A stretch of DNA of 64,000 nt from Escherichia coli (GTDB lineage: Bacteria > Pseudomonadota > Gammaproteobacteria > Enterobacterales > Enterobacteriaceae): NCBI RefSeq assembly GCF_003790525.1, contig NZ_CP033633.1. One strand, given 5' to 3'. A model generated the notes under the pieces. The model was given only the letters and a program-made list of their open reading frames with translations. It did not search any database and was not told the origin of the DNA. Positions 21,172 through 21,390 of this stretch are shown piece by piece (the stretch's first letter is position 1; each line of letters opens with the position of its first letter). The position numbers and the translations under genes were made by a program.

Positions 21172-21390
21172 GCCCGCTAACGCGGAGATACGCCCCGACT
21201 TCGGGTAAACCCTCGTCGGGACCACTCCGACCGCGCACAGAAACTCTCTCATGGCTGAAAGCGGGTATGGTCTGGCAGGGCTGGGGATGGGTAAGGTGAA
21301 ATCTATCAATCAGTACCGGCTTACGCCGGGCTTCGGCGGTTTTACTCCTGTGCCATATGCTACAACGGAGTGCCGCCTTCCATGCCGCTG
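21172..21390 (+). repeat. ~215-bp sequence present again in inverted orientation at 46433-46658
   Basis: Near-identical run (...GCTAACGCGGAGATACGCCCCGACTTCGGGTAAACCCTCGTCGGGACCACTCCGACCGCGCACAGAA...) with few mismatches by eye. Confidence 0.8.

Follow-up and report, generated by a model that had tools for sequence, protein, structure and literature searches.

What is the function of two nearly identical sequences that lie about 25 kb apart in opposite orientation on an Escherichia coli contig (NZ_CP033633.1), each beside a TA operon? The whole stretch of DNA analyzed here, 64,000 nt of this contig, is called the window. A repeat search of the window identified inverted arms at positions 21173-21385 (plus strand; copy A) and 46446-46658 (minus strand; copy B), which are 213 nt long, 97% complementary and 25,060 nt apart. 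A pair of this length and identity is beyond chance in 64 kb. The two copies differ by seven mismatches, and their longest perfect run is 86 bp (21275-21360). In the pairwise alignment of both copies similarity drops sharply outside 21173/46658; at the other end a weaker similarity continues to about 21399/46434 if one 1-nt indel is allowed. The preliminary description of this DNA had announced a near-identical inverted pair at 21172-21390 and 46433-46658. Repeat search and pairwise alignment bear out the pair, and the coordinates were essentially correct. RefSeq annotation of a near-identical plasmid likewise upholds the claim that each copy lies upstream of an inward-pointing type II TA operon. 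These operons are Phd/YefM-RelE (21505-22040, plus strand; RelE_StbE above cutoff) and RHH (CopG)-RelE/ParE (45811-46370, minus strand). The conserved block around copy A (about 21150-21400) is called the unit below. We consider it very probably the last conserved block of a theta replicon of the IncFII family/I-complex, with a primase start as its mechanism and with copy B as an orphan relic.

Copy A is part of the resident replicon. The first 19 kb of the window contain type IVB thin-pilus and shufflon genes, and the leader of repA contains a full-length PK-repZ pseudoknot (19524-19673, plus strand; Rfam, 177 bits against a gathering score of 44), which marks a replicon of the I-complex type. 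On the basis of these genes and this leader, the backbone is assigned to an I-complex (IncB/O/K/Z-like) conjugative plasmid. Among the records, the avian E. coli plasmids, pE16-3 and pPK8275-145kb for example, come closest. The replication initiator gene repA (19686-20558, plus strand), whose product PGAP names incFII family RepA, is followed after its stop at 20558 by the oriR block (20730-20945), which aligns to R100 and contains the DnaA box TTATCCACA (20734-20742), the single match in the window. The Ter core ATGTTGTAACTA (21095-21106, plus strand), also a single match in the window, is a Tus-type terminator site as in R1/R100 and is kept in the alignment with R100 and the IncK2/Z plasmid CP056600.1. 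The unit and the Phd/YefM-RelE operon come next. A stretch that begins upstream of repA, includes the unit and Phd/RelE and reaches about 27.3 kb also aligns with more distant plasmids, at 96-97% and in 2-5 joined pieces, and therefore the resident arrangement looks native. Many plasmids natively have the unit and Phd/YefM-RelE in this order.

The unit is 96.5% identical to R100 over 258 nt (L005, 10262-10519). From the stop of repA as far as the unit extends, window, R100 and CP056600.1 are collinear; directly after it, all three diverge. The unit is present in at least 5000 PLSDB plasmids, and its usual distance from the repA start is about 1470-1700 bp. A RepA-based scan with one genome per species yielded 24 loci at 77-86% identity, from genera that include Klebsiella, Pantoea, Erwinia, Izhakiella, Hafnia, Mixta, Citrobacter and Lelliottia. 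The unit was present about 650 bp past repA in every complete locus (23 of 23), at 68-97% identity. Conservation across 20 replicons is 0.85-0.93 in repA, 0.83-0.92 in oriR, 0.87-0.94 in the left half of the unit and 0.62-0.77 in its right half, and it falls to about 0.4 beyond 21425. This profile and the fixed order of the elements make the unit the last conserved block of the basic replicon, followed by a variable slot that usually holds a TA cassette, as it does here. By its position after repA, oriR and Ter, copy A belongs to the post-origin block of the IncFII-family/I-complex replicons; it is homologous to the R100/R1 block, and the unit is co-inherited with RepA over diverged replicons. 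Copy B does not have this position. A Tn3-type inverted repeat replaces Ter and oriR there, and copy B is therefore a fragment of a member and not a working member.

Several known systems are close to the resident arrangement. The post-origin region of R1/R100 (NR1) has the same order as the window, namely repA, DnaA box/oriR, Ter, unit and TA, and the same end point of conservation; unlike R1/R100, the window replicon is I-complex-like (PK-repZ leader, thin-pilus and shufflon genes) and carries Phd/RelE instead of tir and pemIK. In the IncK2/Z plasmid CP056600.1, which is 96% identical to the replicon of the window, repA, ori, Ter, unit and RHH/ParE are present natively in single copy, whereas the window has the unit and its tail twice, the second time truncated and inverted. 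In the post-repA region of I-complex plasmids (IncI1 R64/ColIb-P9, IncB/O/K/Z), TA genes of the yacAB type are present.

RepA proteins of the IncFII family, 85-86% identical to that of the window, were also observed on contig146 of Streptomyces morookaense (L007, 8.2 kb) and on a contig of a Lachnospiraceae MAG (L010, 4.6 kb). The Streptomyces contig also contains the unit, which is 96.9% identical to that of the window and in the alignment matches that of R100. Enterobacterial plasmid DNA contaminating the two assemblies is the most likely source of both contigs.

The preliminary description had read the repeats as paralogous promoter or leader regions of TA or stability loci, and had conceded that a known element would speak against its reading. 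The copies are paralogous and each does adjoin a stability locus; each copy lies 64-120 bp upstream of a TA start codon, and both operons point away from their own unit. However, the position of the unit is fixed relative to repA and oriR, while the genes downstream change. The modules found after the unit are tir/pemIK in R100, yacA in pGF124.3-B, a RelE/ParE-family toxin with an HTH regulator in pGF4-A, Phd/RelE and RHH/ParE. In pGF124.3-B, whose RepA protein is identical, homology with the window is lost at 21401, and yacA occupies the slot. As one unit precedes five unrelated downstream modules, it does not belong with the promoters or operators of TA genes. Homology between copy A and copy B already stops 64-120 bp short of the TA start codons. 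The motifs that resemble regulatory sites lie in the non-homologous spacers, with a promoter-like site at 46416-46387 next to copy B and operator-like repeats, TGTTAA(G/A)CAGTCT, at about 21440-21495 next to copy A; on the TA strand, neither repeat arm yielded a sigma-70-like site. Covariation of the stems and the constant distance from oriR point to a role in replication. It is most improbable that the units are promoter or leader regions of the two TA operons. The unit tracks repA/oriR, and it is a known element, namely a known part of a replicon.

The right domain of the unit (21311-21399, minus strand) is a putative primase start of the G-site type. On the strand complementary to repA, this domain is predicted to contain hairpin III (21382-21399), hairpin II (21335-21377) and hairpin I (21316-21329), followed by TA and CTG (21313-21311). 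The right domain of copy B is intact, with hairpin III at 46434-46449, hairpin II at 46454-46496, hairpin I at 46502-46515 and CTG at 46518-46520 (plus strand). RNAalifold, applied to a MAFFT alignment of the right half, missed hairpins I-III, because a 1-nt offset in loop length misaligns the arms; anchored hairpin extraction from the homologues was used instead. The arms of hairpin I occur as CCGGC/GCCGG, CCCGC/GCGGG and GCGGC/GCCGC. The outer stem of hairpin II occurs as GGCGG/CCGCC, GGCGCC/GGCGCC and GGTGCCA/TGGCACC, while its span is constant at 51-53 nt. For hairpin III at least six complementary arm variants are present among the homologues. Judged from these variants, hairpins I-III keep their predicted pairing by compensatory changes across the homologues. 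The z-scores of single-sequence folding are unremarkable (minus strand -1.4, plus strand -1.8).

In the mechanism proposed here, the right half, read on the strand complementary to repA, would present three hairpins and then TACTG, a signal of the G4-phage type for the host DnaG primase alone. DnaG would prime the leading strand about 400 bp past oriR, with a predicted primer start at 21312 and extension toward higher coordinates, away from repA. This direction matches the unidirectional replication of the replicon family. The CTG at 21311-21313 lies 394 bp past the end of oriR, as estimated by setting the minimal oriR, reportedly 188 bp, to begin just upstream of the DnaA box. It also lies 13 nt past the stop position of the R100 repA4 ORF. 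In R1, both in vitro and in vivo, the leading strand is reportedly primed by primase alone at a 'G site' that lies about 380-400 bp beyond oriR, according to work by Masai and Arai from 1989 and by Bernander et al. from 1992. Jiang et al. in 1993 reportedly placed the leading-strand start of NR1 near the 3' end of repA4. The predicted start in the unit fits the reported position of the R1/R100 'G site'. A signal of the ssi type near the origin of ColIb was reportedly described by Tanaka et al. in 1991.

The complementary-strand origin of phage G4 resembles the unit in having three template-strand hairpins 5' of a (C)TACTG start. The G4 sequence reads GGACGGCG-AAAG-CCGCCGTCC and CTACTG, with the annotated primer start opposite the T, and the unit has CCGGC-GTAA-GCCGG and TACTG; the primer would read AGUA... 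in both. Unlike G4, the unit has hairpins of other sizes, no detectable sequence homology and an extra, more conserved domain 3' of the start, and its CTG is not conserved in distant plasmid homologues. A BLAST search in distant mode of 50,697 phage records found no similarity between the unit and the G4-like phages, and the resemblance to G4 is therefore one of motif and architecture only. In Rfam no match to the unit was found at gathering score over the whole window, or at E<=5 over 20560-21520. The CTG stands beside hairpin I in both copies of the window, in R100, in IncK2/Z and in IncFII(K), and the Klebsiella variants also have it. In most of the Pantoea, Erwinia and Citrobacter homologues (among loci L012-L030) it is replaced by CGT, CGG, CAT and others; only the (T)TAC after hairpin I (GTTAC/GTAC) is conserved in these genera.

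Near gene X/oriT of R100 (L004, 49913-49937), a 25-nt segment matches the region of hairpin III at 96%, which may be chance or a shared motif.

The left domain of the unit (21150-21236, minus strand) is predicted to form a compact structure of several stems and corresponds to the 3' part of the R100 'repA4' region. Among the non-coding parts of the replicon it ranks highest in conservation, on a level with oriR. The RNAalifold consensus has 28 pairs, six of which show compensatory changes; 486 of its 532 cells are Watson-Crick. Folding the strand complementary to repA gives two conserved G.T pairs that are absent otherwise. The wobble asymmetry favors the minus strand as well (37 G.T against 3 A.C), although this count is biased by the prediction of the structure on that strand. 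The domain lies 3' of the predicted primer start on the template, and the analogy with G4 leaves it unexplained. It is possible, although doubtful, that the left domain, so far annotated only as a questionable ORF (repA4), is an undescribed cis-acting ssDNA element, such as a second signal for priming or primosome loading or a signal on the transferred strand for establishment in the recipient. Jointly with the G site, it might also be the fixed anchor of homology by which IncFII/I-complex replicons exchange the TA cassettes behind it.

Covariation alone cannot separate DNA from RNA, so that the conserved structure might belong to an RNA (sRNA, antisense RNA or 3' UTR), or the region might encode a small protein, RepA4, rather than act as ssDNA. 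R100 has a repA4 ORF of 128 aa over the left half (L005, 10033-10419), PGAP annotates RepA4, and on the plus strand a terminator-like hairpin with GTTTT is present at 21324-21338. Against a protein, the RepA4 frame in the window contains no ORF of at least 20 aa, and the RepA4 stop shifts between variants of the unit (TAG in the CTTA variant). NCBIfam contains no family for the R100 RepA4 ORF or the small ORFs of the unit, and neither NCBIfam nor Rfam has one for RepA4 or the unit. Against an RNA, other genera do not keep the T-run of the terminator-like hairpin. The scans gave no promoter-like site directed through the unit; one on the minus strand, at 21115-21088, points away from it. An RNA or a RepA4 protein as the basis of the conservation is unlikely. 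The annotation of a 'RepA4' protein is probably spurious, since the sequence behaves as a structured nucleic-acid element. The repA4/G-site region as a leading-strand start is a long-known component of IncFII/I-complex plasmids, and the pair in the window is ordinary plasmid mosaicism.

In Klebsiella pneumoniae (L008, about 4050-4295) and Pantoea stewartii (L015, about 4125-4330), an insertion of about 190 nt lies between the two halves of the unit, which shows that they are separable modules. Primosome assembly sites for PriA (n') share the hexamer AAGCGG. Hexamers of this sequence were observed at 21158-21163 and 21259-21264 (plus strand), on the strand that is the lagging-strand template; copy B retains only the second.

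The orientation of the two copies determines which strand would present the signal. The genes ssb, psiB, ardA and nikAB are co-oriented with repA in the sibling plasmid pGF124.3-B and in pE16-3. Genes of the leading region are read from the transferred strand (PMC7690428). Because the leading genes are co-oriented with repA, the transferred strand would be the complement of the repA sense strand, and this complement bears the signal of copy A. The signal of copy A would therefore also be present on the strand transferred in conjugation, and could prime complementary-strand synthesis in the recipient. Since copy B is inverted, its intact right half would lie on the non-transferred strand, the lagging-strand template, where it would at most seed an Okazaki fragment. 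The Frpo/leading-region ssi sequences of F-like and IncI plasmids are structured, are read on the transferred strand and have been proposed to prime the complementary strand (PMC7690428). Frpo is a mimic of an RNA polymerase promoter of about 330 nt in the leading region, whereas the unit belongs to the vegetative replicon and showed no -35/-10 mimic in the scans.

Copy B, with its right domain intact and its left domain truncated, is the outer end of an orphan replicon tail (45710-46655, minus strand), which consists of the truncated unit and RHH-ParE; positions 45710-46663 of the window are 97.7% identical to CP056600.1 1483-2438. In that plasmid the native order is repA (1-879), unit (from 1483) and RHH/ParE (1778-2337). 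Copy B is without repA, oriR and Ter, and the outermost hairpin of its left domain is missing. The inner edge of the orphan is formed by ISEc8 (IS66 family; 43330-45710, plus strand), which is 99.8% identical to the ISEc8 of pGF4-A (L032); an 84-nt match to pGF4-A to the left of ISEc8 (43268-43351) is uninformative. On its outer side, copy B is bounded by the left inverted repeat of a Tn3-family mini-element of 852 bp (46656-47507, plus strand). The terminal inverted repeats of this mini-element are 49 nt long (GGGGTC...TAAG) and 82% complementary. It contains a serine recombinase gene (196 aa; 46871-47461) and a res-like palindrome, GTCCGAAA-N8-TTTCGGAC (46757-46780), which occurs only once in the window. 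The mini-element has no transposase and no target-site duplication (flanks TTAGC and AAGGA). On the right it adjoins the 3' remnant of a transposase of the IS3 family. In relatives, IS5075/IS4321 adjoins the mini-element, between the recombinase gene and the IS3-family remnant.

These boundaries bear on the idea that the unit is a small MITE-like mobile element with its own ends, which inserts beside TA loci. The unit is indeed present in many copies, at no fewer than 5767 places in at least 5000 PLSDB records, and some plasmids have more than one. It has, however, no terminal inverted repeats of its own and no target duplications, and thus does not classify as a transposable element or MITE. 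Copy A is collinear upstream with R100 and IncK2/Z back to repA. The outer end of copy B is the inverted repeat of another element, its inner end is the boundary between replicon and cargo common to all replicons, and extra copies of the unit are explained by plasmids with several replicons. A mobile element of this kind has next to no probability.

Beyond copy B lies an eitABCD-like iron transporter block (47816-51856), at the edge of which copy B stands. The DNA on this side of copy B also includes colicin, ccdAB and parM genes in pE16-3, and colicin M/B, ccdAB, vapBC and parM in relatives. The I-complex backbone has taken up a block typical of the IncF ColV/ColBM virulence plasmids of avian-pathogenic E. 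coli. The IncF plasmid pGF4-A and two E. coli chromosomes share the junction of eit, mini-element and truncated unit, but there it continues with Phd/RelE, and PGAP calls the stub 'RepA4, missing N-terminus'. Copy B equals the pGF4-A orphan (L032, 6351-6577) from the transposon flank through the first approximately 111 nt of the unit, and a T at the equivalent of 21193 is private to the two. Beyond these approximately 111 nt, about 8 of the next 100 positions differ, and the two have a different hairpin III and different cassettes; copy B is a mosaic, its remainder matching another lineage. Therefore, a past crossover in the middle of the unit (about 46545-46552) replaced the downstream TA cassette. 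Being common to many replicons and abutting the TA slot, the unit would serve as a homology anchor for the swapping of downstream cassettes. Copy B itself most likely has no needed function and would hitch-hike on the addictive TA cassette.

With arms of 213 bp at 97% identity and a perfect run of 86 bp, a past crossover visible inside the unit and a serine recombinase gene adjoining copy B, the pair could be read as an inversion switch or recombination module for the 25-kb segment, driven by RecA or by the adjacent serine recombinase. The predicted inversion junction (recombinase - unit - Phd/RelE) was found in none of 72,556 PLSDB plasmids at 80% coverage. Among 5,426 complete E. coli genomes it was found in three records, which are pGF4-A and the two chromosomes; these have different backbones with unrelated resident replicons and a Phd/RelE that reaches only 93.9% identity to that of the window. 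A search of the window found the res-like palindrome only inside the mini-element of the recombinase and in neither arm, so that the pair lacks the crossover sites in both arms of a site-specific inversion system.

The orientation of the pair also varies among close relatives. The units are inverted in five records and direct in NZ_CP029742.1, and the strands of the matches indicate direct units in three more. In NZ_CP029742.1 (L036, 75500-115000), the block of ISEc8, ParE/RHH, unit B, mini-element and eit is flipped and is bounded by truncated, inverted copies of IS1414. The presence of IS1414 at the boundaries indicates that the flip was mediated by IS and not by the unit. With the units direct, as in this record, recombination from unit to unit would delete about 31 kb. 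Taken together, the flips bounded by IS1414, the confinement of the res site to the mini-element and the lack of the junction make the orientation of the pair incidental. A role as an inversion switch or recombination module is very improbable. Homologous inversion or loss of the segment had been suggested in the preliminary description; the arms can recombine, as the past crossover in copy B testifies, but inverted repeats cannot delete the DNA between them. RecA-dependent exchange between the arms is possible, without detectable isomers.

The window was also considered as the product of a unit-mediated inversion, in which the resident RHH/ParE and an orphan Phd/RelE had been swapped. This was rejected as the simplest reading, because the resident Phd/RelE is 93.9% identical to the pGF4-A orphan type and has a different downstream sequence, and because the repA-unit-Phd/RelE stretch to about 27.3 kb matches the more distant plasmids at 96-97%.

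For enterobacterial plasmids, the reading of the unit as the last conserved block of the replicon means that a short conserved non-coding block beside TA genes marks the end of the basic replicon, with its leading-strand start, and not TA regulation. Orphan copies of the block mark relics of former replicons or cointegrates, and crossovers recur at the block, by which TA cassettes move from one replicon to another.
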